Source of the DNA: a virus
Strand: one strand, 5' to 3'
Virus record (IMG/VR): IMGVR_UViG_3300045988_137693
Length of the DNA stretch: 56,335 nucleotides
The notes under the pieces are model-generated. The model was given only the letters and a program-made list of their open reading frames with translations. It made no database searches and was not told the origin of the DNA. The first letter of the stretch is position 1; each line of letters starts with the position of its first letter. Below, one piece after another: positions 3,978 to 56,335 of this stretch. The position numbers were made by a program, and so were the translations under genes.

Positions 3978-4001
3978 CGATCGTTCATAAGAAAGGTTGT
4001 T

Positions 4002-10041: not shown

Positions 10042-10053
10042 AAAGGAGTGGGT

Positions 10054-24324: not shown

Positions 24325-24355
24325 GGAATCACGGCTTTTCATTTTAGGAGTCATC

Positions 24356-34731: not shown

Positions 34732-34771
34732 AACGAAGAAATAACATTAATTCGAGAAAGGAGTGATCCAT

Positions 34772-38872: not shown

Positions 38873-39973
38873 ATGTCTCTCAATGGTATCGATATCTCGA
38901 ATTGGCAGGCCTACATCGATCTTACTGCTGTTCCCGCCGATTTCGTCATCGCAAAGGCCACTCAGGGGACCGAGTACGTATCCCCCGATTGTGCTCGACA
39001 GGTCGAACAGGCACGTGCGACTGGAAAGCGCTTTGGCGTCTATCATTACGTCTCCGGTGGCAACGCCGTCGCCGAAGCCAATCATTTTGTCGACAGCTGT
39101 ATCAATTGGGTCAACGCAGGTCTGTTCTGCATCGATTGGGAAATTCAAGAGAATTCCGCTTGGGGCGATGAGGGGTATCTTGAACAAGTCGTCGCTCAGG
39201 TGAAGGCTCGTACGGGAATTCCTCCGCTCATTTACTCGTCGGCAGCTTATTATGCTCAGGTTGCTGCTGTCGCCAATCGTCAGAACTGTGGTCTGTGGAT
39301 CGCGCAGTATGCGAATAATGTCCCTACCGGATATCAGGACACTCCGTGGAATGAAGGCGCTTACGCTTGCGTCATTCGCCAGTATTCTAAAACCGGTCGT
39401 CTTCCTGGTTATGACGGCGATCTGGATCTCGATAAGTTCTACGGCGATGGAGCCACGTTCGACAAGTATGTGACCGGTGGCGGAAACGCTTCGAATGTTC
39501 CTCCTTCACAGCCTGCCGATCCGCTCGCCGGACGTTCCGATGACGATCTCGCCAATGCTGTGATTCGTGGTGAATTCGGTGACGGCGATGCTCGCAAGCA
39601 GAAGCTTGGCAGTCGTTATGCTGCCGTTCAGGCGTTGGTGAATCAGAAGCTCGCTGCTCCAGCATCCCCTGGTCGGACATATACGGTTCAGCCCAACGAT
39701 ACCCTGTCGACGATCGCTGCCAAACTTGGTGTGGATCAGTCTCAAATCACCGGATTCCATTCCGGTAATCCGAACCTGATTTATCCGGGCGAGGTGCTGA
39801 ATATTTCTGGAGGATCGCCACAGCCGACTGCCGAATACTACACAGTTCAGTCGGGTGATAATCTGTCGACTATTGCCGCTCAATACGGCACCAGTTGGCA
39901 GCACATTCGTGATCTGAATGGTTTGTCGAATCCTGATCTTATCTATCCTGGTCAGGTTCTTCGCGTTAGGTAA
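38873..39973 (+). CDS. Endolysin: GH25 muramidase + two LysM domains
   Basis: NGIDISNWQ...[12 protein letters not shown]...GVYHY...IDWE. Two copies of YTVQxxDxLSxIAA...IYPGxVL. Confidence 0.9.
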
Positions 39974-40542: not shown

Positions 40543-40926
40543 ATGACGGGTATCAGGGTTGAGGTCAATGGCGACTTCAGTGGCCTTGATCGTTTTATCA
40601 CTAACATCAAAGAGCAACGGTATCTCAAAGTACTGGATCGAATCGGACGTCGCGGCGTTGATGCTTTGTCCAACGCCACACCTGTTGATAGTGGCGCGAC
40701 AGCCACTGCCTGGGGGTATGAGGTCCATAGGTCGAAACATCGATCCGAAATTATTTTTACCAATTCCAACGTCAACGATGGCGTGAACATCGCCATTATT
40801 CTCCAGTATGGACACGGCACCGGAACTGGTGGATACGTCGCTGGACGCGATTACATCAACCCGGCGCTTGCAAAAACATTTGATCAATTGGCCGATGAGG
40901 CCTGGAGGGCGGTGACTAATGGCTAA
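40543..40926 (+). CDS. HK97 gp10-like tail component
   Basis: ALSNATPVDSGATATAWGYEV...ILQYGHGT pattern. Confidence 0.5.
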   Translation: MTGIRVEVNGDFSGLDRFITNIKEQRYLKVLDRIGRRGVDALSNATPVDSGATATAWGYEVHRSKHRSEIIFTNSNVNDGVNIAIILQYGHGTGTGGYVAGRDYINPALAKTFDQLADEAWRAVTNG

Positions 40927-43900
40927 CATCGACGAACGTGTGGTCAAGCTGTCCATGGACGATTCGTCCTTGCAGCAAGGCGTATCTCGTGTTACCAAGG
41001 CTTTGGAGCAGCTCAAGAAAGCGTTCAATTTCAGCGACACCAAGTCGTTTGAAGAGCTCGATAAAGCTGCCAAGAAAGTCAAGTTTGATAGCGTCTCCAA
41101 GTCTGCATCCGATATGCAGAAGGATGTCAGCAAAGCCACATCCAAGGCGGCTGACGACTTTGCCGAGATGGGTTCGAGCGCTCAGAAGAGCGTCCAACAG
41201 ATTGGCGCCGCTTCCGATAATGTCAATTTAACTGGTGTTGCATCCGCTGCGAACAAGATGTCCGATCAGGTGCAGCAGTCTGCCGCTGAAGCAAACTCCG
41301 CGATCGGAAAGATTGGCACCAATACCGTTGGCATTCAACAAACCGTTGATGCGATTGACGGCATTAATGATGCGGCCAATCGTGTCGATTTGAGCCCGAT
41401 TCAGAAGGGTGTTGAAAACGTCAAAATGGGAATCTCTTCCATGAGGGATTCCTTGACGAACAGTGTGAATACCTTCAAGGCCACACCTATCGGCGAGCAG
41501 CTTGATGCGGTTCAACCGCATTTCAAGGCCCTTGAGGCCATCGGCGTTGTTGCCATGGGCAATCTTGCGGCTAAAGCGGCTACGTATGGCATGCAACTTG
41601 CCAGTAATCTGACTAATGGCATTCGTAGTGGTTTCGAAGAGTATGAGACTCAGCTGAATTCGGTTCAGACCATTCTTGCCAACACCCAGAAAGAGGGAGC
41701 CAACCTCACTCAGGTCAATACTGCTCTGAATCAGCTCAATACCTACGCTGATAAGACCATTTATAATTTCACCGAAATGACCAGGAACATCGGTACGTTC
41801 ACAGCTGCCGGCGTTGATCTTCAGACTTCGGTGAATTCGATCAAGGGTATTGCTAACCTCGCGGCCATTTCTGGCTCAAGTTCTGCTCAGGCCTCGACTG
41901 CTATGTATCAGCTATCCCAGGCATTGGCCACTGGTACGGTCAAGCTCATGGACTGGAACTCGGTCGTCAACGCCGGTATGGGCGGTCAGGTCTTTCAGGA
42001 TCTGTTGGTTCAGACTTCTGAGAAACTTCAAACTGGCGCTAAGCAGTATATCGCTGCTGAGGGTTCCTTCCGCGACTCGCTTCAGAAAGGTTGGCTGACT
42101 TCGGATGTTCTGACCCAGTCATTGAACATCCTGGCCATGGACATCACCGATGTCGAGAAGGCCGTTCAGTCGCTCGTCTCAAAGGGCTACACCGAGGAAG
42201 AAGCTCGTCAGCTTGTCCAGCTCGCCCAGACCGCTCAGGATGCGGCGACCAAGGTCAAGACATTCTCGCAGCTTATCGATACGGCCAAGGAAGCAGTCGG
42301 TTCCGGTTGGTCTCAGTCGATGCAAATCCTGTTTGGTGATTTCGAAGAAGCCAAGGATCTGTGGACCGGTGTTTCCGATGAGATCAATAATATCATCAAC
42401 GCCCAATCGCAGGCTCGAAACCAGCTACTGTCTTCCGGATTCTCGTCCGGATACAAGCAGCTGGTGAATCAAGGAATCGTCGATACCCAAAGCTTCCAGG
42501 ATATTCTTACGAATCTTGGCAATCGAGATTACGTTAGCGGGCTTATTAATCAATATGGTAGCTTTGAGAAGTCGCTTCATGCCGGTTGGTTGACTGCCGG
42601 AATGCTGAAAGACGGCGTGGCTCAGCTCACCCAAAAAGTTGATGGCTATGATGATGCGACCAAACAAAACCTTGGCATCACCAACGAACAGATCAATCAG
42701 CTTCATGCATTAAATGCAGGTCTTCAAAATGGCAGTATTTCCGCTGATGATTTCGCCAAGAAGATGCAGCGGATGTCCGGTCGAGAGAACGTCATCCAGG
42801 GTCTTGCCAATATTTGGAACTCTCTGAAGACGATCATTCAGGCGGTGGGCAAGGCTTGGGATGAAGTCATGCCTAGCATGAGTGGTGATACCATTTATGC
42901 GCTTACTGAAGCTTTCCGCAAGTTTACCGAAGGGCTGAAACCTTCGCCTCAGTTGCTGAATGTCATCACTACTGCCACCAAAGGCGTCGCTACGGCGTTC
43001 AAAGCGTTTCTTGGTGTTGTCGGCTTAGCAGCCAAAGGCTTCGGCACATTGCTGGGCTTTGCTGGTAAAGTCGCTGGATCATTCATTAATATCGCTTCAT
43101 CGGCTATTAATGGCGCCAAAGCATTCGCCGAATATGTCAAGCAATCCAAGGTTGTTACCAATGCAGTCAAGCTATGGGAAGCTTCATTCTCATCGTTTGG
43201 AACGGTCCTCAAGACCATTGGCGATTCTATCAGCGGCGTATTCGATGGCCTGTTCGATGGCGCGAAGAAAGGCACTTCCGGATTCCCCGATATTCTCGGG
43301 ATCATCAGCAAGACCCTGGCTGGTTGCGCTCAAGAAGTCAATAATTACGGCACTGAATTCCAGACAGCCTTCCAAGCGAAGTTCGGCTCTGTTCCGGAAA
43401 TCGCTCAGAAGGTTTCGGATAAGGTTTCTTCTGCGATCCAATCACTTCGCCCAGCGTTCAATTGGATTGGCGATCGTCTTCAGGAAATCGGAGAAGCCAT
43501 TCAGCGATTCTTCGGCGATCTCAACGGCAAGATTACCCTCGATCAGATTCTGTCGTTGATCAATGGCGGCTTATTGACCGGTGTTCTTGTTGGACTCAGA
43601 AAGTTCATCAAGGGACTCAATGAAGTTGGCGATGATCTTGAGAAGTCGACCTTCAAAGGCGCTCTGAAGAAGACACTCGACGATATCGGTAATTCGTTTA
43701 AGGACTTCGCCAAGTCGTTTAAGATCGTTTCGATCACCGCCATCGCTGCGTCGATAAAGTTGCTTGCTGACGCCTTAACGCAATTGTCGACCATCAGGAC
43801 CGAAAAGATCATGCCGGCACTTGGCGCTATGACCGCCATCATTACTGTCATGACTGGCATGATGGCTGGACTTGCTGCTTTGGCGGAAGTAACCAACAAA

Positions 43901-46900
43901 GCCGGAAAACTGGTCTTTGATTTCGATGCGTTGAACAAGGTCGCTTTGGCCATGGTGGCGCTCGGCGCTTCCATGAAACTTATGGCCGAAGCCGCCTATA
44001 TGCTCAAGGACATGGATCCGGCGCAAATCGCGGTGATATTTGGGTCGATGGCCACTGCGATCGTCGCTCTTGGCGGATCAATCGCTTTGATGGGAACGGC
44101 CAAGCCTGAACGATTGAATGCCGTCGGCACCAATATGATTAAGTTGGGCGCCGGATTCGTGTTGATGGCGTCCTCCTTGGTCGTGCTCGCTAGAGCCATC
44201 CTCATGATTGCGAGCGTCAAACCCGATGACCTTGCGCGTTCGATGAATGCCGTCGCACTGGGTATCGTTCTTCTCACCACAGCCATGGGAGGTCTTGGCG
44301 CCGGTGCGAAATTCGGTGCTGATTATTCCGGTGTCGGCAAGAATATTCTCTTGATGGTAACTGCCTTGATCCCCCTCGCTCTAGCGATAAAGATCCTTGG
44401 TACTATGGACCTTGACGATCTTGCCAAGGGTCTCGGTGCCGTCGCCATTGGACTGGGCGTCCTCGCTGGTGCCATGGCTGGTCTTGGCTATATTCAAGGC
44501 ATGGGCGGAAGTTACGGGAAGTCCGCAGCGGCCATCATGGCATTCGCGACTGCCATGGTGCTTCTTGCGGTCCCGATCAAGGTGCTCGGTGGCATGGATC
44601 TTGATGACCTCGCCAAAGGCGTAGGCGCTTTGGTCATCACCCTCGGCGCCTTCGCCGGAGCAATGGCTCTATTCAGCAAGTTCAATGGCCAATTCGCCGG
44701 AATGCTGATGGCTTCAGCCGCTATATTGTCATTCGCTACGGCTGCTGTGGCATTGACCATTCCGATCAAGGTCCTTGGCGGAATGGATCTGAATAGTCTG
44801 GCCAAGGGTCTCAGCGGTTTCGGTTTGGCTTTGGCTGGTATGGTTGCGGCCATGAATCTCATGCCCAACAACATGTCGGGTCAAGCCGCTGGTATGATGG
44901 CGTTCGCTGCTGGCATTACCGTTCTTGCCGTCGCCATCCGTCTTATGGGATCGATGGATATCAAGCAGCTCGTTACCGGGTTGACTGGATTCTATGGGGC
45001 TCTTGTCGGACTCGGATTCGCAGGTACGGTTCTCGGTCCGATGGCCGTAGAGCTTATAGCAGTCGCCAAAGCCATGGGCGTGTTCGGTCTAGCCTGCCTC
45101 GCCATCGGCGCTGGTATGGCACTCGCTGGAGCAGGACTCACCGCTCTCGCAGCTACAGGTTCCGCTGCCGGTGGCATTCTGATGACGGCACTCGACGCTC
45201 TGATTCAGTTCATTCCGGCATTGGCGAAATCGCTGGTGACCGCATTGATCGGCGTCCTTCAGGCGATCGTGGCTGCTTTGCCTCAGATTCTTGACGCGTT
45301 GTCGTCGATTCTCAGGGATCTTATGGCGTGGCTTGTCCAGCAAGTCCCGGCAGTCGCCGACGCTGTTGTGACAATGATCGATAAGATATTGCAGGTGGTT
45401 GCCGCACACGCTGATACCATCACCGACAGTCTCGTAACCATTCTGGTTGCAGCGCTCAACGCCGTAGCCGGTCATGCTCCGGAGATTACAGCAGCTCTTG
45501 GCAATGTCATGACTGCCATATTCACCGCCATCGCGGATTCGATACGTAATCTCGATCCATCGGTGCTTACTTCGCTACTTCTTTCCGTTGGAGTCATGGC
45601 CTTGATATTCAAGGCTTTGGCGAAGATGAAGAAAGACGTCGTTGGAGCACTGATGGTTGGCGGCACCATGATCGGACTCATGGCCGCCCTCACGGGCGTC
45701 TTCGCACTCATGAACCTGCTGAATCCGGTCAACACCGTGGCATCGGCGGTATCGCTATCCACGGCCTTGATCGTCATGACCGGCGCATTCAAGATCATGG
45801 AGACCGCGAAGAAGCACGTCATCGGTGCTCTGGCTGTCGGCTCGGCAATGGCTGCAATCCTTGCCGAGTTGGCACTGGTCTTCGGACTGATGTCCGCCAT
45901 GAACATCGACAACGTTGGCACCATCGCAGCGTCGTTGTCCGGAACCATTCTGGCCATATCCGCAACGGCAGCGATCATGAGCCTAGTCAACGTCGGTGCC
46001 GCTATGAGTGGCGTTGCTGCTTTGGCGACGTTTATCGCCGGTCTCGCTGCTATCGTCGTTGCCGCTGGCGCTATCAAGCAGATACCCGGCGTCGACTGGT
46101 TGGTGTCTGAAGGCGCCGCATTCATGGCGAAGATCGGAGCCGCACTTGGCGGATTCATCGGATCCATTGCCGGCGCTATTACCGGTGCCATCATGGGGGC
46201 GATTGGAAGTTCGCTGCCGGCACTGGCTACCGGTTTGTCTAACTTCATGACCAATCTGAAGCCATTTATTGCAGGCGCCAAAGAGATTGATGGATCCGTC
46301 GCAACAGCCGTTGATACCCTGGCCAATGTGGTGCTCAAGCTCACGGCTTCGAATCTTCTCGATGCCATCACCAGCTTCATAACCGGTGGCAATGGTATTG
46401 AGAATTTCGGAACCAAGCTGGTACCGCTTGGCCAAGCATTGAAAGACTACTCTGCAGTAGTTGCCGATTTGAATTCGGCATCCATCGTGTCGTCTGCCAT
46501 GGCTGCTCAAGCGCTGACACAGGTGCTGAATGCACTTCCTGCCGACGATGGACTTTGGCAGAGAATTGCCGGTAGTAAGGACTGGAGTACCTTATCCGAC
46601 GGCCTCGTCCAAATGGGCATGGCGTTGAGTATGTACGGCGTTGCCGTGACTGGACTTCAGCCAGGACCGATAAGCGCTTCCATTGAAGCGCTCAACGGAT
46701 TGAACGGCGTGCTGAACGCTGTTCCTTCCGATGACGGTTGGTGGCAGAAAGTTGCCGGTGGCAAGGATTGGAGCACATTGTCCACCGGACTCACCGGAAT
46801 GGGCAAGGCGCTTGCCGGATATGGCAAAGCCGTATCTGGTGATGGAGTCAATATCGACGCCATTCAGAAGACGGTTCCAGCCATTAAGAAGTTGAACGAG

Positions 46901-48607
46901 GTTCTTCAGAACGTTCCTTCTGATGACGGTTGGTGGCAGAAGATTGCCGGTGGCAAGAGCTGGGGCACGCTTACTGAAGGTCTGAAGGGTCTCGGCGAAG
47001 CGCTTGCCGGATATGGCACAGCCGTATCGGGCGATGGCGTTAACGTCGGAGCCATTCAGAAGACGGTTCCGGCAGTCAAGTCGTTGACCGAGATTCTGAA
47101 GAGCGACTTCAGTCAGGTCGGCGATTTCGGTCCTATAAAGAACGCCGCAACGCAGCTTGGCAACGGTCTGGCTGGATACTATAACGCCGTTTCCGAGGTT
47201 TCGCCTGATGCCATCACACCGACGTTCGCTCCATTGCGTTCCTTGATCAATGTCGTCAACAGTCTTGGCGGCATGAAGATGGAAGGCACATCAGTCGGAT
47301 TCATCACGGCCGCAACTCAGCTCGGTATCGGATTGTCGAACTACACGAAGAACGTGGCCGAACTGGACTTCTCGAATATTTCGGCCAGTGTCAGTGCCGT
47401 TGGTTCGTTGTCCAAGGTCATGGGCGGAATGCCGGCCGAGTATGGCGGAGTCACGGCGTTCCAGCAAGCTGTATCCACGCTCGCCGCGACATCGTTCATG
47501 TCTCTGGCCAGGTCCATTCAAAATGCCAATAGTTCCATTAGTACTGGTCTGTCCGATTTGAACACGGCGTTGAGCACTGGCACAACGACCTTGACCGGAT
47601 CAGTGAATGCTCTGAATTCCGCTTTCCGTGATATCAATCTGAGCGGCGATCTCTCGTCTCAGATGAGTGCTGCTGCAAGTGCTGCGAATTCTGGAGCAAA
47701 TCAGATCCGTTCGGCATTGAACGCTCTCGCCACTTGGTTGAGCGGTTTCGCTTCGATCTGGCAGGCATCGTTCACGCCGATAATCGGAGCCACTCGTACC
47801 GGCCTCAACCTGGTCGCTCAGGCGATTTCCTCGTACAACGGTCGTTTCTCGCAAGAGGGACGTAGTTTGGCGAATAGTCTGGGCAGCGGCATGCGTTCTG
47901 GCATCGGCAACCTTTCGAGTATCTTCAATAGCGCTCTGAGTGCCGCCGTCGATGGTGCTCGTGCGTATCGAGGAAGCTTCGAGAGTGCCGGTTTCTACCT
48001 TGCGGCTGGTTTGGCCGTGGGCATATCACGCAATTCCGACGCTGTCAGCAGGGCAGCAGCAGATGCTGTGTCGAATGCCGTTGCGGCAGCCAGGGAAGCA
48101 GGCGACATCAATTCGCCGTCACGTGTCATGGCTAAGGTCGGCATGTGGTTCGACAAGGGTCTGGAGAACGGTATCGCCGATAATGTCGGTGGCGTCGTTC
48201 GAGCCGCAAAGACCATGATGACGAGAAGCATCGATGTCGTCGATGCTTCGTTGAGCAATATCGGCAAGATCGATATTCCGGAATTCGACGTCAATCCGAC
48301 CATTACTCCGGTGATGGATCTATCGGTCGTCGAGGGTCAAGCCGCGTATCTGAATTCCATGCTGTCCGACACAGTTGGCATCGGATATTCGTCCAAGATG
48401 ATTGGCAAGATCACTGCGATTCCTCGTCAGAGGGATACCGGTCATGCTGTCGAAAGTGTTGAGAAGACCCCTCAGCAAATCATTAACAACTACGACTTCA
48501 CGCAGAACAACACTTCTCCGAAGGCGCTCAGTCGTTATGATATCTACAAGCAGACCCGTACGCAGTTCCGTCAATTCGAGCAAATGAATCGAAATGGAGG
48601 TCGATGA
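40919..48607 (+). CDS. Tape measure protein (2562 aa)
   Basis: Size, position, long helical and hydrophobic repeats. Confidence 0.9.
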   Translation: MANIDERVVKLSMDDSSLQQGVSRVTKALEQLKKAFNFSDTKSFEELDKAAKKVKFDSVSKSASDMQKDVSKATSKAADDFAEMGSSAQKSVQQIGAASDNVNLTGVASAANKMSDQVQQSAAEANSAIGKIGTNTVGIQQTVDAIDGINDAANRVDLSPIQKGVENVKMGISSMRDSLTNSVNTFKATPIGEQLDAVQPHFKALEAIGVVAMGNLAAKAATYGMQLASNLTNGIRSGFEEYETQLNSVQTILANTQKEGANLTQVNTALNQLNTYADKTIYNFTEMTRNIGTFTAAGVDLQTSVNSIKGIANLAAISGSSSAQASTAMYQLSQALATGTVKLMDWNSVVNAGMGGQVFQDLLVQTSEKLQTGAKQYIAAEGSFRDSLQKGWLTSDVLTQSLNILAMDITDVEKAVQSLVSKGYTEEEARQLVQLAQTAQDAATKVKTFSQLIDTAKEAVGSGWSQSMQILFGDFEEAKDLWTGVSDEINNIINAQSQARNQLLSSGFSSGYKQLVNQGIVDTQSFQDILTNLGNRDYVSGLINQYGSFEKSLHAGWLTAGMLKDGVAQLTQKVDGYDDATKQNLGITNEQINQLHALNAGLQNGSISADDFAKKMQRMSGRENVIQGLANIWNSLKTIIQAVGKAWDEVMPSMSGDTIYALTEAFRKFTEGLKPSPQLLNVITTATKGVATAFKAFLGVVGLAAKGFGTLLGFAGKVAGSFINIASSAINGAKAFAEYVKQSKVVTNAVKLWEASFSSFGTVLKTIGDSISGVFDGLFDGAKKGTSGFPDILGIISKTLAGCAQEVNNYGTEFQTAFQAKFGSVPEIAQKVSDKVSSAIQSLRPAFNWIGDRLQEIGEAIQRFFGDLNGKITLDQILSLINGGLLTGVLVGLRKFIKGLNEVGDDLEKSTFKGALKKTLDDIGNSFKDFAKSFKIVSITAIAASIKLLADALTQLSTIRTEKIMPALGAMTAIITVMTGMMAGLAALAEVTNKAGKLVFDFDALNKVALAMVALGASMKLMAEAAYMLKDMDPAQIAVIFGSMATAIVALGGSIALMGTAKPERLNAVGTNMIKLGAGFVLMASSLVVLARAILMIASVKPDDLARSMNAVALGIVLLTTAMGGLGAGAKFGADYSGVGKNILLMVTALIPLALAIKILGTMDLDDLAKGLGAVAIGLGVLAGAMAGLGYIQGMGGSYGKSAAAIMAFATAMVLLAVPIKVLGGMDLDDLAKGVGALVITLGAFAGAMALFSKFNGQFAGMLMASAAILSFATAAVALTIPIKVLGGMDLNSLAKGLSGFGLALAGMVAAMNLMPNNMSGQAAGMMAFAAGITVLAVAIRLMGSMDIKQLVTGLTGFYGALVGLGFAGTVLGPMAVELIAVAKAMGVFGLACLAIGAGMALAGAGLTALAATGSAAGGILMTALDALIQFIPALAKSLVTALIGVLQAIVAALPQILDALSSILRDLMAWLVQQVPAVADAVVTMIDKILQVVAAHADTITDSLVTILVAALNAVAGHAPEITAALGNVMTAIFTAIADSIRNLDPSVLTSLLLSVGVMALIFKALAKMKKDVVGALMVGGTMIGLMAALTGVFALMNLLNPVNTVASAVSLSTALIVMTGAFKIMETAKKHVIGALAVGSAMAAILAELALVFGLMSAMNIDNVGTIAASLSGTILAISATAAIMSLVNVGAAMSGVAALATFIAGLAAIVVAAGAIKQIPGVDWLVSEGAAFMAKIGAALGGFIGSIAGAITGAIMGAIGSSLPALATGLSNFMTNLKPFIAGAKEIDGSVATAVDTLANVVLKLTASNLLDAITSFITGGNGIENFGTKLVPLGQALKDYSAVVADLNSASIVSSAMAAQALTQVLNALPADDGLWQRIAGSKDWSTLSDGLVQMGMALSMYGVAVTGLQPGPISASIEALNGLNGVLNAVPSDDGWWQKVAGGKDWSTLSTGLTGMGKALAGYGKAVSGDGVNIDAIQKTVPAIKKLNEVLQNVPSDDGWWQKIAGGKSWGTLTEGLKGLGEALAGYGTAVSGDGVNVGAIQKTVPAVKSLTEILKSDFSQVGDFGPIKNAATQLGNGLAGYYNAVSEVSPDAITPTFAPLRSLINVVNSLGGMKMEGTSVGFITAATQLGIGLSNYTKNVAELDFSNISASVSAVGSLSKVMGGMPAEYGGVTAFQQAVSTLAATSFMSLARSIQNANSSISTGLSDLNTALSTGTTTLTGSVNALNSAFRDINLSGDLSSQMSAAASAANSGANQIRSALNALATWLSGFASIWQASFTPIIGATRTGLNLVAQAISSYNGRFSQEGRSLANSLGSGMRSGIGNLSSIFNSALSAAVDGARAYRGSFESAGFYLAAGLAVGISRNSDAVSRAAADAVSNAVAAAREAGDINSPSRVMAKVGMWFDKGLENGIADNVGGVVRAAKTMMTRSIDVVDASLSNIGKIDIPEFDVNPTITPVMDLSVVEGQAAYLNSMLSDTVGIGYSSKMIGKITAIPRQRDTGHAVESVEKTPQQIINNYDFTQNNTSPKALSRYDIYKQTRTQFRQFEQMNRNGGR
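44395..45100 (+). repeat. Tandem, roughly 170-190-bp coding repeats within the tape measure gene (hydrophobic LGxMDLxxLAKGLG... units)
   Basis: Units start near 44396, 44584, 44773 and 44944. Confidence 0.7.
46530..47105 (+). repeat. Three tandem 192-bp coding repeats within the tape measure gene (VPSDDGWWQKxAGGKxWxTL... units)
   Basis: Units start near 46530, 46721 and 46913. Confidence 0.8.
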
Positions 48608-49533
48608 TGTTTCAGTCTATGACTGTTACGAATGCTCGTGGCGACACGCTCGATCTCCCCATCCGAAACCCAATGGCGACTGGCTATAACGTCGTCGCCA
48701 TTGACGGTCTCGGACCGGTCGATGCCGTGCTTCAGACCAGCAACACCGTCACCACCGACGGCGTGATCTTCAATGGCGCCCGTAAGGATGAGCGCGAGAT
48801 CACCATCAATCTCGCGTATCATCCGGAATCGGGTAAGAACATTGAGGATCTTCGGCATGGAACATACAGGTATTTCCCCGAAAAAGAGGAAGTCACCTTG
48901 GTGTTCCATGCCGACACCCGTTCGGTTCGTACGACCGGCATCGTCGAATCGAACGAGATTTCGATATTTTCCGAAAAAGAGTCGTCGTCGATCGTTGTCA
49001 AATGCCCCGATCCATGGTTCAGGATAGATAACGAGCTGAATAGGATCACATCGTTCTCCAACATCGAACCGGTGTTCGAATTCCCGTTCAACTGGGCAAA
49101 TAATCCGGTGAGTGAACCGAATGCGTTGTGGTTTGGTGCCATTCAGAATATGCATTCGAAAAACATCATGTATGATGGCGAATCAGAAGTCGGCGTGATC
49201 ATCCGTATGTCGTTTGATGGCCCGGTGAATAATATTCGCATCTATAATGAAGAGGCCGGTCAGGAGATCGACGTCTTTACGGATAAGGTCGGACAGATCA
49301 TCCCCGACGGCATCCGAAAAGGCGATGAACTGGTTATTTGCACGGTGCCGAAGCAGAAGTACGTTGAGATCATTCGAGACGGTATCTCGACTAACATTCT
49401 CAACGCCATCAATCGAGACGTGCGATTCATCACGTTGCATAAAGGCGCGAATACCATCGTGTATTCCGCCGATTCCGGTGTGGATAACATCCTCGTGTCG
49501 ATCGAGAACGAAACGTTGTATACAGGAGTGTGA
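48604..49533 (+). CDS. Distal tail protein (Dit)
   Basis: Immediately after the tape measure; typical N-terminal pattern TVTNARGDTLDLP...VVAIDGLGP. Confidence 0.8.
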   Translation: MMFQSMTVTNARGDTLDLPIRNPMATGYNVVAIDGLGPVDAVLQTSNTVTTDGVIFNGARKDEREITINLAYHPESGKNIEDLRHGTYRYFPEKEEVTLVFHADTRSVRTTGIVESNEISIFSEKESSSIVVKCPDPWFRIDNELNRITSFSNIEPVFEFPFNWANNPVSEPNALWFGAIQNMHSKNIMYDGESEVGVIIRMSFDGPVNNIRIYNEEAGQEIDVFTDKVGQIIPDGIRKGDELVICTVPKQKYVEIIRDGISTNILNAINRDVRFITLHKGANTIVYSADSGVDNILVSIENETLYTGV

Positions 49534-49539
49534 CGTTAT

Positions 49540-50793
49540 ATGACTGAACAGTTGACCAAACGTTCCATGCAGCTGTTCGTGCTCGATAAGAGTTTCGAAG
49601 TCGTCAGCCTATGTGACACGTTCAGTTCGCTTATCTGGACTGAACGGTATTCCGGGTATGGCGACTTCGAACTCTACCTTCCAGCTTCCGTGGCCAACAT
49701 CAACATGTTCCCTCGAGGCTTTTACCTATGGCTGATAGAACCGTTCGTATACGATAAGAACGGCAAGAAGATCGAGACTCGCAATGACGTCATGATCATC
49801 GAGAAGACTGAACTGAGTACGGACATCGAAGATGGCGATCGATTGATCGTCTCCGGACGTTCGCTTGAATCGCTGCTGCTTCGAAGGGTGATTCCGAAGA
49901 AAGTCAAGTATGAATCGATCGATCCTCGAGAGATCATCAAGACAATACTGAACGAAAACATCATCAAACCTTCGGAACCCGCACGCAAGATTCCGAACTT
50001 CAAAATGGCAATCGATTCTTCGCAACCACTGGATCCGAAGTACAGGCAAACCTTCGAATTCGATGGCGATTACGTCTATGATGCCATCAAGACGATATGC
50101 GATACTTATGACTTGGGGTTCTCTCTCGATCTGAAGTCCGATGATCATTGGCAATCGTCCTATCTGTCGTTTTCGGTTCTCGAAGGTACCGATCGTTCGT
50201 ATGAACAGATCAAGAACCCCTATATGGTCTTCTCGCCGAGATTCGATAACCTCGTATCCTCGGATACCATTGAAGACGATACCGAATTCTATAATTCGGC
50301 ATACGTCGCCTCGACCGAGGAGACCAAGGACAACGTGACCCGTCGTCTGATCAAATACGTGCCGAACAACTCCGGTCGTTCTGGCTGGGACATCCGGGAA
50401 ACGTTCTATACGGATTCCGACGCCAAATTGAACGATGCTGATAACCATCCTCGTCCAGACCACGACATATATCCTGAACTGGAAAAGTACGGCCGAGACG
50501 AATTGAAAGTGCAGAAGTCGAACAATTCGTTCAATGCCGAAATCGCTTTGCTTGGCTCGGTTCGGTATCATCGCGACTACGAGATCGGCGACATCATCCA
50601 GTTCGACAACACCTACGGCGTCAACAAAAAAGCGCGCATCACCGAATACGTTCGTAATGAGGACGACAATGGCTACCGTGAGTATCCGACGTTCGAGCCG
50701 TTCTCCACCGAAGGCATCGATGCACTTGAGGATTCGTACGGCAATTACGTGCTGGATAATCACGGCAATACCATCAATGAGGGATTCATCTGA
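49540..50793 (+). CDS. Tail-associated (Tal-like / Gp37-like) baseplate protein
   Basis: Position after Dit; the LIWTERYSGYGDFELYLPAS N-terminal pattern. Confidence 0.7.
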   Translation: MTEQLTKRSMQLFVLDKSFEVVSLCDTFSSLIWTERYSGYGDFELYLPASVANINMFPRGFYLWLIEPFVYDKNGKKIETRNDVMIIEKTELSTDIEDGDRLIVSGRSLESLLLRRVIPKKVKYESIDPREIIKTILNENIIKPSEPARKIPNFKMAIDSSQPLDPKYRQTFEFDGDYVYDAIKTICDTYDLGFSLDLKSDDHWQSSYLSFSVLEGTDRSYEQIKNPYMVFSPRFDNLVSSDTIEDDTEFYNSAYVASTEETKDNVTRRLIKYVPNNSGRSGWDIRETFYTDSDAKLNDADNHPRPDHDIYPELEKYGRDELKVQKSNNSFNAEIALLGSVRYHRDYEIGDIIQFDNTYGVNKKARITEYVRNEDDNGYREYPTFEPFSTEGIDALEDSYGNYVLDNHGNTINEGFI

Positions 50794-51446: not shown

Positions 51447-52355
51447 ATGACAAGAATTCTCGATGCACACGGCAACGAACTCAAGCTGGAAGACATTGAT
51501 CTGAATGCCGGCAAGCTTGTTGACGAGACCATTACCGTCCATCATGACGCTGTTGAAGGCGTCGAGGAAGTATCTCATGTCGAGGTGCTCAAAGAATACT
51601 ACGAGACTGGTCCGGATGGCGAACCGGTTCTCGATGAGGACGGTCATAAGATCGTCTTCGGCAAGGATGTAAAGACCATCATTGATGTCCCAGGCGTTGA
51701 GGCCAAGCCAGCTTACGACGAACAGGAAGAGATCCAGCGATACATCCCGTATACCGCTGAAGAACTCGATAAGATCGCCAAAGAGAAGGCCGACGCCCAG
51801 GCCAGTGCGGCCGTTGCGGACGCTGAAAAGTTGGCGATTCGTCTCATTGTGCAGAAAATCGCTCCGTCGCTATCCACGGACGAACTGATGCAGGTCGCAG
51901 CGATTCTCCCGAACTGGGATGCGTCGAAGACGTACACTGAAGACGATATCGTCCGTTATCAACAGAGCCTGTATCAGGCCATTGGCGAGGTCCCGGCCAA
52001 CACGGTTCCTGATGCGGCTACCGACAAGTGGAAGAACCTGACGAAGCCGGTCGATGGGGTCGCACGATGGATTCAGCCGAACAGCGCGGAGAACGCGTAT
52101 GATTCAGCGGCCGTCGTCATGCATGACGATGAGCAGTGGTTCTCCGATGAGGATTACAACATGCATGAACCCGGTGTCGACGGCTGGACGTCGAATGGTG
52201 ACGCCGTCGCCGAGTGGGCCCAGCCGACCGATGCGAACAATGCCTATGCCGAAGGCGCCGTGGTGCGTCATAATGGCAAGCGATGGGTTTCAACGGTGTC
52301 CGGCAATGTCTGGGAGCCCGGTGCTTCCGGAGTGACCCGGTGGGTCGAATCCTGA
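51447..52355 (+). CDS. Tail fibre / receptor-binding protein with two C-terminal carbohydrate-binding-like repeats
   Basis: Repeats ARWIQPNSAENAYDSAAVVMHDDEQWFS and AEWAQPTDANNAYAEGAVVRHNGKRWVS (CBM5/12-like W..Y..G motif). Confidence 0.6.
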   Translation: MTRILDAHGNELKLEDIDLNAGKLVDETITVHHDAVEGVEEVSHVEVLKEYYETGPDGEPVLDEDGHKIVFGKDVKTIIDVPGVEAKPAYDEQEEIQRYIPYTAEELDKIAKEKADAQASAAVADAEKLAIRLIVQKIAPSLSTDELMQVAAILPNWDASKTYTEDDIVRYQQSLYQAIGEVPANTVPDAATDKWKNLTKPVDGVARWIQPNSAENAYDSAAVVMHDDEQWFSDEDYNMHEPGVDGWTSNGDAVAEWAQPTDANNAYAEGAVVRHNGKRWVSTVSGNVWEPGASGVTRWVES

Positions 52356-52367
52356 TAGAAGTCTCAT

Positions 52368-53405
52368 ATGGCACGTATTAACAGTTATACCAAGATCACC
52401 GGAGCACCGGCTGATTCCGACTGTTTCATCATCGACTCGACGCAGGGCACCGCAGGCACCCGAATCGTGTTGTGGTCCGTGTTGAAGAGCGTTCTCACTG
52501 GCATATTCGCCTCTAAAAGCCATAAGCATCCGGGCAGTGATATCACGTCAGCTGTCGCCAACGCCAATGCCGCCATCAACGATTCCACCGGTCAGAACAT
52601 CGCCTCGACGTATGTGAAGGAGATCACCGCGAACGGCAGGACCATCACGGTGAAACGCGGCAACGACACGACCTTCACGTTCCAGACACAGGATACGAAC
52701 ACAACGTATCCTGTTGCTGATGCTAGTAAGTCTGGTATTATGGCTGCTAGCGATTGGTCTCTTCTGCATTCGCTGAAGGCCATTAATAAGGCGGTTGATA
52801 TATCAGATGGTACCAATCTGAATTCGTACAATTCGGTTGATGAATGCGGATGGTATTATGCCCATGGCGGCAACAATGTGACCAATAAGCCGTCAGGCGT
52901 CGACCATTTCGGTATGTTCCTCATGCGGATGGCGACGGGAGTGATCTCTCAGATCCTGTACGACAACAGTAACAAGATCTGGACGAGGTCATTTGGTTCT
53001 AATAGATGGAGCTCGTGGACCGCTCTGGTCCGAACGACCGATACGATCGACAACGCCACGAACGCCACCAAGGCAACGCAGGACTCCGCCGGTCAGACCA
53101 TCAATACGACCTATGTGAAGTCCATTACCGCATCCGGCCGCACGGTCACCGTGACCAAGGGCAATGGTACGACCTCGACGTTCACCACGCAGGATACGAC
53201 ATACTCCGCAGCCACGCAGTCGGCTGACGGTCTGATGTCGTCCGCCGATAAGCGGAAGCTCGACGGTCTGTCCGGCGATTACACTTCAGCCATCGGTCTC
53301 GCCACGTCCTCGAAGGACGGTCTGATGTCCAAAACCGACAAGGCGAAGCTCGATGCGATTGGATCGATATCCAACAGTACGATCGACGGTTTCTTCAGAA
53401 TTTGA
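52368..53405 (+). CDS. Tail fibre protein with internal repeats
   Basis: Duplicated DSxGQxIxxTYVKxITAxGRTxTVxxGNxTT.TFxTQDT blocks and GLMSxxDKxKLD motifs. Confidence 0.75.
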   Translation: MARINSYTKITGAPADSDCFIIDSTQGTAGTRIVLWSVLKSVLTGIFASKSHKHPGSDITSAVANANAAINDSTGQNIASTYVKEITANGRTITVKRGNDTTFTFQTQDTNTTYPVADASKSGIMAASDWSLLHSLKAINKAVDISDGTNLNSYNSVDECGWYYAHGGNNVTNKPSGVDHFGMFLMRMATGVISQILYDNSNKIWTRSFGSNRWSSWTALVRTTDTIDNATNATKATQDSAGQTINTTYVKSITASGRTVTVTKGNGTTSTFTTQDTTYSAATQSADGLMSSADKRKLDGLSGDYTSAIGLATSSKDGLMSKTDKAKLDAIGSISNSTIDGFFRI

Positions 53406-53429
53406 TGATATTTTAGGAGGTATGATATC

Positions 53430-53882
53430 ATGGTAGCTTATCTTGACGAGGCGGGGGCTCGGTATCTAGTCAAGAAGGTTCTTGACCGGATCCAGCCCGT
53501 TGGATCTCTCTATTTCAGCACTAATAGCACGTCCCCAGCGAGTTTATTCGGTGGCACCTGGGAACGCTATGCGCAGGGACGAGTAATGGTCTCTGCATCG
53601 GACACCGATACAGATTTCACCGTCGGCAAAACCGGCGGAGAGAAGACGCATAGTCATTGGCTACCGCTTGGTATGGAGGATTTCTCCAACGGTGTGTTCT
53701 CTGTCACTTGGACGCGCAGTAACCAAGGTGGCGTCCGACGTCGAAGCATCGCTCCCGGCCATCACGATCTCTACTCCCCGGACTCCAGATCACCGCACTC
53801 GAACGGCACCGAGGAACAGTCGTATTCCGAGTCGAGTCTTCAGCCGTATGTTGCAGTGTATGTGTGGAGAAGGACCGCTTAA
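53430..53882 (+). CDS. Tail-tip protein 1 (PVGS..GGTWE...QPYVAVYVWRRTA family), current orientation of invertible cassette A
   Basis: taggagg RBS. 74-aa constant part ends in the 31-bp repeat; a 76-aa variable C-terminus follows. Confidence 0.8.
   Translation: MVAYLDEAGARYLVKKVLDRIQPVGSLYFSTNSTSPASLFGGTWERYAQGRVMVSASDTDTDFTVGKTGGEKTHSHWLPLGMEDFSNGVFSVTWTRSNQGGVRRRSIAPGHHDLYSPDSRSPHSNGTEEQSYSESSLQPYVAVYVWRRTA
53622..53652. repeat. Inverted repeat A, left copy (31 bp, in frame, encodes VGKTGGEKTH)
   Basis: gtcggcaaaaccggcggagagaagacgcata; exact reverse complement at 54085-54115. Confidence 0.95.
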
Positions 53883-54084
53883 GCGGTGCGACGCCAAATA
53901 TAGACAGCCACATATGGCTGCAAATTGTTATGCGGCATGTTTCCACCAGCCGATTTAGTTTGAGCAATATTGACGAACGAATCATCACGTCGACCGGCTT
54001 TTACTTTACCAGCGTATGGCGAATTAGTTCCATCAGCTACTGATATATCATGAGTGTGGGATGCCAACTCATCCACTGTAAGCG
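53653..54084. mobile_element. Putative invertible segment A (432 bp) carrying two convergent alternative C-terminal modules
   Basis: Bracketed by the perfect 31-bp inverted repeat. The two stop codons overlap within the palindrome ACCGCTTAAGCGGT (53874-53887). Confidence 0.7.
53879..54084 (-). CDS. Promoterless alternative C-terminal module (68 aa) for tail-tip protein 1
   Basis: Read from the right repeat: (VGKTGGEKTH)TLTVDELASHTHD...GGNMPHNNLQPYVAVYIWRRTA*. No RBS or start of its own. Confidence 0.7.
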
Positions 54085-54115
54085 TATGCGTCTTCTCTCC
54101 GCCGGTTTTGCCGAC
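54085..54115. repeat. Inverted repeat A, right copy
   Basis: tatgcgtcttctctccgccggttttgccgac. Confidence 0.95.
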
Positions 54116-54140
54116 TCCTCACGGAAAGGCAAGACCTATA

Positions 54141-54710
54141 ATGGTTGCATATTTGGATCAGGCAGGTGTACAGCACCTCATTGCTAAGATTCGCGATACG
54201 TTTTGGCCGGTCGGCACGATTCTGGCGACGACCACCAACACATCACCGGCGTCCTATCTCGGAGGCTCCTGGGAGGCGTATGCTCCCGGAAGGACGCTGG
54301 TGGGTGTAGATGCTTCTCATCCGCTTAACAGTACTGGTGGAAGCGAGACACATGAACATGGTCCAGGAACATTTGGTGCACAGGTCTCGCTTGACGGACA
54401 GAACACCGTCGTGCGACGTGTCCGTCTTTCCTCGTTCAAGGGTGATGTGCGCAAGAGCGGTGCCATCAATGGCGGTTCGTTCGACGCAACCTGGGGAGCT
54501 GCCATCGCCGGACATTCCGACATATGGATTCATGAGCGGAAGGTTTCCATAAACCTTCGTTCCATTACCAGTCTTTTTACTATTCCAGTTCACACCGCCT
54601 CTAGTTTCCAATTCAAATCCAAACGCGATACTAACAGGAATATGTGCATTGTCGTCTTTCCATACGACGTGTATTCCAGCATGATCGTTGAAGTTCGTTC
54701 CAGCCGCTAA
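54141..54710 (+). CDS. Tail-tip protein 2 (paralog of protein 1), current orientation of cassette B; atypical C-terminus, possibly degenerate
   Basis: MVAYLDQAGVQHL..PVGTIL..YLGGSWEAYAPGRTLVG, then VDASHPLNSTGGSETHEH.... It lacks the QPY..WRRTA end, and the last ~65-80 aa are antisense to the - strand module. Confidence 0.5.
   Translation: MVAYLDQAGVQHLIAKIRDTFWPVGTILATTTNTSPASYLGGSWEAYAPGRTLVGVDASHPLNSTGGSETHEHGPGTFGAQVSLDGQNTVVRRVRLSSFKGDVRKSGAINGGSFDATWGAAIAGHSDIWIHERKVSINLRSITSLFTIPVHTASSFQFKSKRDTNRNMCIVVFPYDVYSSMIVEVRSSR
54255..54306. repeat. Inverted repeat B, left copy (52 bp, in frame, encodes YLGGSWEAYAPGRTLVG)
   Basis: tatctcggaggctcctgggaggcgtatgctcccggaaggacgctggtgggtg; exact reverse complement at 54788-54839. 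Confidence 0.95.
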
Positions 54711-54787
54711 ATCAGTCGAACGGCCGACATCAACGGTTTTCGCACCACCCTGCTTGTTGAGAGTGAAGTCGGTATCCGTTGTGGACG
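54307..54787. mobile_element. Putative invertible segment B (481 bp)
   Basis: Bracketed by the perfect 52-bp inverted repeat, with family-like coding on both strands reading inward. Confidence 0.6.
54471..54787 (-). CDS. Promoterless alternative module for tail-tip protein 2 (no stop codon at the expected terminus)
   Basis: Read from the right repeat: (GRTLVG)ASTTDTDFTLNKQGGAKTVDV...GNLPLMNPYVGM..VERTA. Compare ASDTDTDFTVGKTGGEKT and GNMPHNNLQPYVAV in cassette A. Confidence 0.5.
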
Positions 54788-54839
54788 CACCCACCAGCGT
54801 CCTTCCGGGAGCATACGCCTCCCAGGAGCCTCCGAGATA
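54788..54839. repeat. Inverted repeat B, right copy
   Basis: cacccaccagcgtccttccgggagcatacgcctcccaggagcctccgagata. Confidence 0.95.
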
Positions 54840-54861
54840 TTATATAGAAAGGATCATATCA

Positions 54862-55188
54862 ATGGATTGGATCGAAATGTTGATTACAATCGCTGGATCG
54901 GTATTCACATCCAGTGGATTGTGGACGTTGATCCAGTATAGAGTAAAACAAAAAGATACCGGAATTCTTATGACTCGTGGTATGGCACATTACCGAATCA
55001 TAGAGGAGGGTCAGAAATTCATCGATCGCGGGTGGATCACCCATGAGGAATATGACGACTTCATGAAGTATCTTGGCGACCCTTATCTGGAGTCCGGATC
55101 AAATGGTCTGGCGAAGAAAATGATCGACGACATATCCGACCTTCCGTTCAAATCGGTTTCGTCGATTCGTAGTACTATGGATCATTAA
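54862..55188 (+). CDS. Membrane protein with an N-terminal TM segment; possible holin or lysis accessory
   Basis: gaaagga RBS then ATG 54862: MDWIEMLITIAGSVFTSSGLWTLIQY... Confidence 0.5.
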   Translation: MDWIEMLITIAGSVFTSSGLWTLIQYRVKQKDTGILMTRGMAHYRIIEEGQKFIDRGWITHEEYDDFMKYLGDPYLESGSNGLAKKMIDDISDLPFKSVSSIRSTMDH

Positions 55189-55230
55189 GACGTCGCGTGA
55201 CATACATGGCTCTCAATGAAAGGAGCCATT

Positions 55231-55530
55231 ATGAACAACGACAAGATCTCTAATGGACACTATGAAGCACAACTCAAGAACGGATACTTAAGGATCAAGG
55301 GTGTAACACATCTTGGATGCTTAGCACTTACCGGTACCGTATATGACGGTGATATTCGTATACCATGCGAAGTCATCGAAAAAGACGGACTGGTAAGATG
55401 TGTAAGTTTCAAGCTGAAATATATGCCTTGGTTTGCTGGTAGAAGTTTTGTTAAGGGTTTGAAATTCATCATGTTCCCAAAAAGGATCTGTAAATCGAAA
55501 GCCATCATAGAGGCAATCATTTCAGAATAA
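55231..55530 (+). CDS. Hypothetical protein (99 aa)
   Basis: aaaggag RBS then ATG 55231. Confidence 0.55.
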   Translation: MNNDKISNGHYEAQLKNGYLRIKGVTHLGCLALTGTVYDGDIRIPCEVIEKDGLVRCVSFKLKYMPWFAGRSFVKGLKFIMFPKRICKSKAIIEAIISE

Positions 55531-55574
55531 AGCATAAGAGCCTATGCACCACGCATGGGCTCTTATGCTTTTCT
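55531..55574 (+). terminator. Intrinsic terminator (12-bp stem)
   Basis: Stem agcataagagcc/ggctcttatgct, then tttt. Confidence 0.75.
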
Positions 55575-55606
55575 CACGTAAATCATAGAAGAAAGGATCA
55601 TATATC

Positions 55607-55903
55607 ATGGCCGAACACGCCGATCAGAAAACGTCATTTCTCACCGATGCAGGTTATGACGGCCTCATCAAGGCTGCACGTCGATGGCTGCCAGCGCTCA
55701 GTGTCTTGCTGATCGTGATCGCCGGTGTCTGCACGCAGCTCGGTCACGTCCCCGGCATGGAGGCCGCCACGGCCGGTCTGGCCACGGTTTCCGGTATCTG
55801 TATGGCACTGAGCTGGGGTATCAACGAGCTGCTCAAGCGTGCCAAGGATCAGTGGAACACGTCGACTGATTCAGACAACACCACTGAGAGTACTGCCGAA
55901 TGA
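55607..55903 (+). CDS. Probable holin (two TM segments)
   Basis: WLPALSVLLIVIAGVCTQLG and LATVSGICMALSWGINELL, with a charged C-terminus. Confidence 0.55.
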   Translation: MAEHADQKTSFLTDAGYDGLIKAARRWLPALSVLLIVIAGVCTQLGHVPGMEAATAGLATVSGICMALSWGINELLKRAKDQWNTSTDSDNTTESTAE

Positions 55904-55909
55904 TATCGT

Positions 55910-55946
55910 ATAAGAGCCTATGCCACGCGCATGGGCTCTTATATTT
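55910..55946 (+). terminator. Intrinsic terminator, near-duplicate of the one at 55531
   Basis: Stem ataagagcc/gggctcttat, then atatttt. Confidence 0.7.
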
Positions 55947-55954
55947 TGTCTCGA

Positions 55955-55984
55955 CGCGAATCGTACATGGCCTTTAATGACAAG
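55955..55984 (+). promoter_or_regulatory. Conserved promoter-like box, copy 9
   Basis: cgcgaatcgtacatggCCTTTAATGAcaag. Confidence 0.55.
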
Positions 55985-56008
55985 AGAATCTATCATAAAG
56001 GAGCAATC

Positions 56009-56218
56009 ATGAACGATACATTTACTTATGTCAGCCAACAGCACAGCCAGCACACTTGCCTGGAGCTTGTTCGGTGGATCAAGAACCACTGCGATCCGGA
56101 AACGGAGAGCGGTATTCTTACGACCAAGACGAAGAAGCTTCGGGTGATTATGGTCACTACCAACCTGGAAGACATGAGCGCATTCGCAGATTATCTAAAG
56201 ACCATCACTCTCGTCTGA
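56009..56218 (+). CDS. Hypothetical early protein (69 aa)
   Basis: aaaggag RBS then ATG 56009. Confidence 0.6.
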   Translation: MNDTFTYVSQQHSQHTCLELVRWIKNHCDPETESGILTTKTKKLRVIMVTTNLEDMSAFADYLKTITLV

Positions 56219-56225
56219 AAAAGGT

Positions 56226-56262
56226 GAGCCGCACATGCGGCTTGCTCTTTATTTTTTTTTTT
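56226..56262 (+). terminator. Intrinsic terminator (CCGCACATGCGG core) with an 11-T run
   Basis: gagccgcacatgcggcttgctctttattttttttttt. Confidence 0.75.
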
Positions 56263-56335
56263 CGCGCATGACACATGTCCTTTATTGAAGAAATTCAACA
56301 ATATCAAAGGAGTAATCATGCTTATCATCGACAAG

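Follow-up and report, generated by a model that had tools for sequence, protein, structure and literature searches.

What does a perfect inverted repeat do inside a tail gene, and what would move the DNA that it encloses? The question is raised by IMG/VR record IMGVR_UViG_3300045988_137693, a 56,335-nt stretch of phage DNA (the window), in which a 52-bp inverted repeat bounds a segment at 54255-54839, named here cassette B, that begins within a small gene (gene 2) and lies next to a second such segment, cassette A, in the paralogous gene 1. Here we report an analysis of both cassettes, their counterparts in related phages, and the genome that carries them. The layout of the locus and its orientation in relatives are, we consider it likely, best explained by cassette B being one of two adjacent, independently invertible switches in small (~150 aa) Gp10_C-type tail-tip proteins at the end of the tail module.

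Two repeat-bounded cassettes and their orientation in relatives

The 52-mer TATCTCGGAGGCTCCTGGGAGGCGTATGCTCCCGGAAGGACGCTGGTGGGTG occurs exactly twice in the window, at 54255-54306 on the plus strand and at 54788-54839 on the minus strand, with 100% complementarity and 481 nt between the copies, as the initial annotation of this DNA had claimed. Identity breaks off sharply at both ends of each arm. No further copies of the 52-mer were detected even at 3 mismatches, and 100 dinucleotide-preserving shuffles gave zero matches with 3 mismatches allowed, while the identical arm is also present in the related loci L037, L081, L082, and L084. In the open reading frame (ORF) starting at ATG 54141, the left arm is read in frame, and past this arm the present frame reads VDASHPLNSTGGSETHEH. 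In-silico inversion of the cassette keeps the frame and replaces VDASHPLNSTGGSETHEH by ASTTDTDFTLNKQGGAKTVDV, in agreement with the in-frame continuation that had been predicted for both orientations. A 31-bp perfect inverted repeat, 53622-53652 / 54085-54115, likewise confirmed the proposed cassette A within gene 1 (53430-53882). Below, const2 denotes the constant N-terminal part of gene 2, V2a its module that is now expressed, and V2b the module that is now silent.

53430-53882, plus strand: gene 1, the intact 150-aa paralogue hosting cassette A; matches Pfam Gp10_C over its full length (69.6 bits)
53622-53652, plus strand: left arm of cassette A, 31 bp, encoding VGKTGGEKTH
53879-54084, minus strand: silent module V1b of cassette A, intact, ending in NNLQPYVAVYIWRRTA and a stop codon
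54085-54115, minus strand: right arm of cassette A, 26 nt upstream of the gene 2 start
54141-54254, plus strand: constant N-terminal part of gene 2 (MVAYLDQAGVQHLIAKIRDTFWPVGTILATTTNTSPAS) upstream of the repeat, from the ORF; 95-97% identical in relatives
54255-54306, plus strand: left arm of cassette B, in frame, codons 39-55, encoding YLGGSWEAYAPGRTLVG
54307-54521, plus strand: module V2a, now expressed, truncated after AAIAGHSD
54518-54521: deletion junction, from alignments to L010/L014 and L081
54518-54787, minus strand: module V2b, now silent, reading from ASTTDTDFTLNKQGGAKTVDV to GNLPLMNPYV, truncated
54788-54839, minus strand: right arm of cassette B, an untranslated partial copy of gene 2 codons 39-55

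Each cassette contains one expressed and one silent module, and no promoter-like site above background was found for the silent modules on the minus strand. A TAA codon stands directly upstream of the right arm of cassette B, in frame on the minus strand, and is also seen before YLGG in the translation of L084. The design is that of a constant N-terminal part followed by an in-frame arm and the expressed C-terminal module, with a second module placed tail-to-tail on the other strand and an untranslated inverted arm closing the cassette. Recombination between the arms would flip the interior and join the constant part to the other module, a swap that would presumably alter receptor specificity.

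A search with the upstream 345-aa tail protein returned 79 loci, including ~38 close relatives on phage contigs of 55-60 kb, and nearly all of these close relatives have one or two cassettes at the same position. The cassettes of the family have perfect arms of 17-68 bp and interiors of ~430-600 nt. The closest relative found, L081 (ENA ERZ28620005, 56,409 bp; 95-97% identical), carries identical 52-bp B arms, between which the same two modules point the other way, and its cassette A is inverted too. Exact flips of cassette A also distinguish three near-identical pairs: the interiors of L010 and L014 are 98.6% identical as the reverse complement, L022 and L024 share 99.8% of the interior as the reverse complement next to a 200-nt left flank that is 100% identical, and for L032 and L033 the corresponding value is 97.2%; compared in direct orientation, the interiors of these pairs are only 1-15% identical. 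Because L010 and L014 are unlike in A and the same in B, while the present genome and L081 are unlike in both, the comparison indicates that the two cassettes flip independently, as had been anticipated in the initial annotation.

Both joints predicted for cassette B exist as intact genes in other metagenomes, so that the two continuations fit the family as claimed: const2 joined to V2b in P0001 and P0002 (154 aa, 93-94% identical), and const2 joined to V2a in P0050/L084 (145 aa). The silent module V2b shares 92-94% identity with the C-terminus expressed in P0001 and P0002 (both 154 aa) and in L081, L037, L001, and L004, and orphan ORFs of 97-101 aa represent V2b in the silent state. Intact versions of V2a are found in L003 (gene at 7057), P0050/L084, and L081. 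The locus therefore bears the signature of a gene-altering programmed inversion, namely a repeat in coding sequence, an inverted shorter copy nearby, and an orientation that differs among close strains. Taken together, the genome comparisons show that the segment really inverts in this family, cassette B included.

Several points weigh against this conclusion. The evidence consists of orientation differences between assembled genomes of relatives rather than of reads from one population, and the inverted relatives are not isogenic, being 1-5% diverged elsewhere, because of which inversions may be infrequent over the course of an infection. In addition, the orientation of a short-read assembly can mislead when the repeat nears the k-mer size, which affects the 52-68-bp arms of B-type cassettes and does not touch the 27-36-bp arms of the three cleanest flip pairs.

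The core of V2a (54333-54521) recurs in cassette A of other phages, behind the gene-1-type constant part, in L003 (7258-7445), L024 (7145-7332), L027 (759-947), and L006 (7094-7282), with the joint at conserved GG(S/E)(K/E)TH codons, which shows that modules travel between the two cassettes and between phages. A scan for prophage relatives in bacterial genomes gave one distant match, in a Clostridia metagenome-assembled genome, without a cassette, and a megablast search of the GenBank phage collection with 52300-56335 gave no match. The honeybee Bifidobacterium phage BitterVaud1 (L080) was rejected as a cassette carrier; it has two Gp10_C genes, a mere vestige of a converging module, and no repeat arms. 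At 4391-4496, right after its Gp10_C gene, lies a 44-nt palindrome (70%) made of the C-terminal codons of the gene and an antisense remnant of the end of a second module, the vestige of a tail-to-tail cassette without repeat arms.

A central deletion in cassette B and the proteins of genes 1 and 2

The interior of cassette B measures 481 nt here versus 567 nt in L081. In alignments to L014, L010, and L081, its centre is short by 82, 66, and 86 nt, respectively, with the junction at 54518-54521, and a 4-nt microhomology (CGAC on the plus strand, GTCG on the minus strand) stands on both sides of the missing stretch in L081. The 86-nt loss looks like a microhomology deletion. It removes ASSMxPYVAVxYWRRxA with the following stop codon from V2a and AVxYWRRxA with its stop codon from V2b; V2a is short of ~18 codons plus the stop, intact forms ending in SASSMEPYVAVYIWRRTA or VASSMQPYVAVRYWRRIA before their stop codon. 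The lost stretch is the conserved terminal strand (PYVAVxYWRRxA), whose counterpart in the alignment is the final strand of T4 gp10. In both orientations, cassette B is missing the stop codon that relatives have at this place: the present gene 2 ORF of 189 aa continues to 54710 and includes 57 residues of antisense read-through of the other module, and the ORF formed by inversion would leave the cassette and continue to 54941, a 266-aa read-through into the next gene. The called 189-aa ORF is an artefact of the lost stop codons, and an exact look-up of its product found it not on record. With the terminal strand and the stop codon gone from both modules, gene 2 probably does not function in either orientation and would be a pseudogene, and cassette B would be the decaying counterpart of a system that relatives have kept intact. 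For the same reason, the up to four tip combinations envisaged in the initial annotation are probably not functional in this genome.

The deletion junction itself was seen in this contig only: its 30-mer gave no match in viral_contigs and its 24-mer no match in metagenome_contigs. Against a genuine loss, the missing 86 nt could stem from an error of assembly or amplification. An extension of this concern is that the assembler made the repeat, its orientation, or the central deletion at a repeat-induced bubble, the source being probably a metagenome assembly, with its 85-bp terminal overlap. We hold this to be very improbable, since the same 52-bp arms and layout appear in many independent ENA, JGI, and Logan assemblies produced by different assemblers, and de Bruijn-graph errors do not typically take the form of a deletion with just 4 nt of microhomology at its bounds.

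Cassette B was also lost by independent deletions in L007 (~7990-8030), L026 (~8005-8020), and L030 (~7330-7350), those of L007 and L026 ending in or beside the repeat arms and leaving a 21-nt palindrome in L007. At ~2504-2524 of L090 (reverse complement), the cassette is rearranged, with a deletion between the conserved C-terminal motif codons of two silent modules that lie in direct orientation. Given these losses and the rearrangement, the phages can do without gene 2, so that its loss is tolerable, and the locus is prone to recombination.

The same observations can be read in another way, namely that the cassettes are an archive of alternative modules and not a working switch, that flips and swaps reflect rare general recombination between co-infecting phages, and that the present copy is a dead remnant. 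Such a reading accommodates the damage to cassette B in both orientations, the dispensability of gene 2, the 1-3% divergence within inverted pairs, and the occurrence of V2a in cassette A of L003, L024, and L027, which would then be general mosaicism. We judge it rather improbable, because nearly every relative has kept the in-frame arms, the tail-to-tail silent module with its own stop codon, and the untranslated identical arm, with arms that stayed identical through several substitutions; this retention points to selection on the ability to flip. Furthermore, three close pairs, as well as the present genome and L081, differ by exact flips. Thus, an invertible switch, damaged in this genome and intact in relatives, is the account that we prefer.

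The proteins exchanged by such a switch belong to one family. Gene 1 matches Pfam Gp10_C (PF21939) with 69.6 bits over profile positions 2-139 of 139, and gene 2 with 46.4 bits at residues 18-71, covering profile positions 2-65 only; both scores exceed the curated cut-off of 27 bits. Gene 1 also aligns to the C-terminal domain of T4 gp10 (PDB 2FKK, E=4e-6), the alignment taking in the N-terminal motif and the final strand (QPYVAVYVWRRT vs QPYITVYRWIRI), and in PHROGs it matches tail protein and baseplate wedge families. In Streptococcus prophages, the Gp10_C domain forms the last 145 residues of a 618-aa structural protein encoded between the tail endopeptidase and the holin. From position and homology, we infer that the products of genes 1 and 2 are distal, receptor-contacting tail-tip proteins, the gene 2-type protein being probably an intertwined trimer. 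The AlphaFold2 monomer of P0050, an intact gene 2 equivalent modelled from a 24-sequence alignment, reached a pLDDT of 42 and lends no weight to the receptor role. Intact proteins of the family have 143-177 aa and combine one of two constant N-termini with at least 10 unrelated middle parts and the shared C-terminal end PY(V/I)xVxxWRRxA.

A further source of variation may lie in gene 1 homologues, which have a poly-G tract at the place corresponding to window positions 53449-53458 (codons 7-9) in L001-L038, L081, and L084. Eight relatives have G8 and an in-frame gene with the full 148-170 aa, seven have G7 and a 12-aa ORF, and five have G6 and a 17-aa ORF; the tract differs within the close pairs L010 (G6) vs L014 (G8) and L032 (G7) vs L033 (G8). 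In the present genome, the tract of gene 1 is interrupted (GAGGCGGGGGC) and locked in frame. The length differences look like slipped-strand ON/OFF variation that could be added to the inversions; homopolymer sequencing error could also account for them.

Recombination of the repeat arms and the genome that carries them

The first 85 bases of the window equal its last 85 (1-85 / 56251-56335, an exact terminal overlap), and relative L001 reads on from its 3' end straight into its 5' end; the window is thus a complete genome, circular or terminally redundant, with 56,250 bp of unique sequence. We scanned all of its ORFs of at least 106 aa, apart from the 2562-aa ORF at 40919-48607, against Pfam or PHROGs, and among them found no member of the serine (Resolvase), tyrosine (Phage_integrase), or DEDD recombinase families. 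A diversity-generating retroelement was rejected, as no reverse transcriptase family was found among the scanned ORFs and an identical, inverted pair is not the A-mutated direct repeat pair of such an element.

Comparison of the arms across the family provided insight into how they recombine. Arm B has five polymorphic columns among 13 B-type cassettes, and at each of them the two arms agree in 12-13 of the 13; among 26 A-type cassettes, the two arms agree in all 26 at two columns. The untranslated right arm of cassette B stays identical to the coding left arm. A single fixed-point crossover would exchange arm halves and would not copy a substitution from one arm to the other; because the arms nevertheless evolve in concert, gene conversion or crossovers at variable positions, i.e. 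homologous recombination, must act on them, at least over evolutionary time. The initial annotation had taken the 52 identical bases inside otherwise diverged paralogues as a sign of ongoing recombination or gene conversion. The concerted arms support this idea. The 52 identical bases are not common to genes 1 and 2, however; gene 2 has them in common with the partial, untranslated copy that closes its own cassette.

Enzyme pairs of the Red/RecET type, which are used in recombineering, recombine homologies of a few tens of bases. A predicted single-strand annealing protein (16011-16538) and a predicted exonuclease (24146-24949) are encoded by the phage, and these two, or host RecA, would act on the perfect arms of 31-68 bp. 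Since the complete genome yielded no site-specific recombinase and the arms evolve in concert, we lean slightly towards homology-driven inversion as the mechanism.

The main competitor is a site-specific invertase supplied in trans, either a tyrosine or serine recombinase of the host Bifidobacterium or an unrecognised phage protein, for which the long arms would just embed a short core site. Well-studied phage tail-fibre switches all use a dedicated recombinase (Gin, Cin, Min; Rin, PMC6109161), and for the tRNA-Met bifidoprophages, in which ~500 bp invert with no recombinase alongside, an enzyme in trans was proposed (PMC6109161). Several features of the present family count against homology as the driving force and towards such an enzyme: the outer arm edge is fixed across the family, as a defined recombination site would explain equally well; within arm B lies a marginal dyad, CTCCTGGGAG-7 nt-CTCCCGGAAG, with 8 of 10 positions paired (42 of 1000 shuffles as good), whose 7-nt spacer gives the layout of a tyrosine-recombinase core site; some relatives have merely 17-18 bp of perfect arm identity, short for efficient homologous recombination; and several ORFs of 140-300 aa have no recognisable family. 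We nevertheless regard an invertase in trans as unlikely, if clearly worth keeping in view. Beyond the lack of a recombinase gene among the scanned ORFs, reliance on a host enzyme would be unusual for a phage without an integrase, and one enzyme would need two unrelated sites, because no motif beyond chance is common to arms A and B, and dyad symmetry is absent from arm A (896 of 1000 shuffles were as good). A fixed-point crossover would also fail to produce the concerted arms, and the cassettes contain neither the 11-bp rix site of Rin (TTCCCTAACCC; 0 matches at up to 1 mismatch) nor the 8-bp CAGGGTTA of the bifidoprophage inversion.

Extending the homology-driven mechanism to the whole system, we tentatively propose, at somewhat less than even chances, that virulent gut Bifidobacterium phages run a host-range switch without a dedicated invertase, in which homogenised repeats of ~30-70 bp at conserved codons of small tail-tip genes would serve the annealing protein and exonuclease, or host RecA, as substrates for flipping, and two cassettes together with poly-G ON/OFF variation would give combinatorial tail tips. 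Programmed inversion would then proceed through general homologous rather than site-specific recombination.

The remainder of the genome is consistent with a siphophage that is apparently virulent: one strand holds all large genes, and no integrase was found among the scanned ORFs. The following genes were assigned, those for the annealing protein and the exonuclease on the plus strand.

10048-14154: primase/helicase
16011-16538, plus strand: predicted single-strand annealing protein (phrog_4787, E=5.7e-35; Pfam PF24083)
20265-21512: helicase
24146-24949, plus strand: predicted exonuclease (phrog_3953, E=4e-61; Cas4-family annotation in relatives)
24963-27764: 933-aa protein (phrog_4291, 'RNA-dependent RNA polymerase', 1063 bits)
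29079-29636: dCTP deaminase
29633-30049: HNH endonuclease
31273-33039: terminase large subunit
33352-34731: portal
34763-36706: protease fusion
37975-38670: major tail protein
38873-39973: GH25-CW_7-LysM lysin
40919-48607: tape measure candidate, the 2562-aa ORF, placed by position and size
48604-49533: distal tail protein (Dit)
49540-50793: Tal-like tail protein (Sipho_Gp37)

After Tal follow three more tail genes, one of them with carbohydrate-binding CBM_5_12 modules, then gene 1, gene 2, and small membrane proteins. The exonuclease label is supported by the annotation of the neighbouring gene in Curtobacterium phages (Cas4-family), and the terminase has 69% identity to its Streptomyces phage counterparts. 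The 933-aa protein, which has helix-turn-helix motifs at both ends, is 50% identical to its counterpart in BitterVaud1 and is conserved there and in numerous Streptomyces, Arthrobacter, and Gordonia phages, in which its annotation goes no further than DNA-binding protein; we assume that it may be a single-subunit RNA polymerase of the YonO type.

The lysin is 80% identical to that of an integrated prophage on chromosomal contigs, where the L-serine dehydratase beside the prophage is a Bifidobacterium gene, 89% identical to the B. ruminantium version. On the basis of this lysin match, the host is very probably a human-gut Bifidobacterium. A closer tie to that prophage was ruled out, as it has no Gp10_C gene and no CAGGGTTA. 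Within the structural module, the lysin gene of the phage comes after the major tail protein and before the tape measure candidate, and not with the small membrane proteins at the genome end. Far from the main tail module, a tail-assembly-chaperone-like gene (5043-5501) lies between two DUF6353 paralogues (3963-4757 and 6844-7758; E=1e-61 and 4e-55). Downstream of the cassettes, GC-rich hairpins at 55527-55571 and 55903-55947 (also ~56218-56245), of 45 nt, 82% alike and followed by a T run, sit after successive small ORFs and look like repeated intrinsic terminators, and the ribosome-binding stretch AGAAAGGATCATAT is repeated at 54846 and 55590.

Comparison with known inversion systems

Bifidobacterium is a key genus of the infant and adult gut, while its phages are hard to culture and the rules of their host range are almost unknown. 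If the present interpretation is true, two conserved, flippable tail-tip cassettes would account for the way in which these phages keep up with variable host surfaces, and the family, with at least 10 module types, would be a potential catalogue of natural receptor-binding modules. To our knowledge, each of the textbook inversion switches of phages comes with an invertase of its own. If true, a switch that relies on short homogenised repeats and on homologous recombination, general or phage-encoded, would broaden what counts as programmed inversion, and loci of this kind would escape surveys that look for a nearby recombinase. No description of this phage lineage or its cassettes was found in the searchable literature, which is incomplete.

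In the Mu G, P1 C, and p15B Min systems, the serine invertases Gin, Cin, and Min are encoded beside the invertible segment and act at 26-bp dyad-symmetric crossover sites with an enhancer, and the flipped segment also carries a tail-fibre assembly gene. Cassettes A and B resemble these systems in having inverted repeats within a tail-fibre gene, a constant N-terminus, and a C-terminal receptor-binding part that is swapped in frame for a silent, inverted alternative. Unlike the Gin/Cin/Pin/Min type, no serine recombinase was found here, arm A has no dyad, and the A and B arms have no common site. The segment is also smaller, with 430-600 bp holding nothing but two module ends, and in place of one switch there are two separate single-switch cassettes in two paralogous genes of 150 aa.

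The Rin shufflon of Bifidobacterium prophages (Mavrich et al. 2018, PMC6109161) uses an adjacent XerD-like tyrosine recombinase and 11-bp rix sites (TTCCCTAACCC) to rearrange 3-5 modules in temperate phages, and its proteins resemble lactococcal receptor-binding proteins (PMC6109161). It shares with the present system probably the host genus and the fusion, by inversion, of a constant N-terminus to alternative C-terminal modules. Unlike Rin, the cassettes studied here have perfect arms of 31-68 bp and one silent module each, with no recombinase or rix site found, and they diversify a Gp10_C-type protein in a genome without an integrase. [quoted passage not shown] It likewise has no flanking recombinase; its segments are dissimilar, its genes have no recognisable function, and its 8-bp CAGGGTTA site (PMC6109161) is absent from the present cassettes.

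Gene-altering programmed inversions, or intragenic invertons, were surveyed in bacterial chromosomes (Milman et al. 2023, PMC9881135; Chanin et al. 2023, PMC10028968), where recombinase genes are enriched beside the loci and prophage tail fibre genes are among the enriched targets (PMC9881135). Cassettes A and B share with them an inverted repeat in coding sequence, a shorter inverted partial copy downstream, and an orientation that varies in close strains; unlike the surveyed chromosomal cases, they reside in a free, apparently virulent phage genome in which no recombinase was found. The principle of tail-protein inversion is already known, and it is the absence of an invertase from a complete genome, together with repeat arms that evolve in concert, that sets this system apart.

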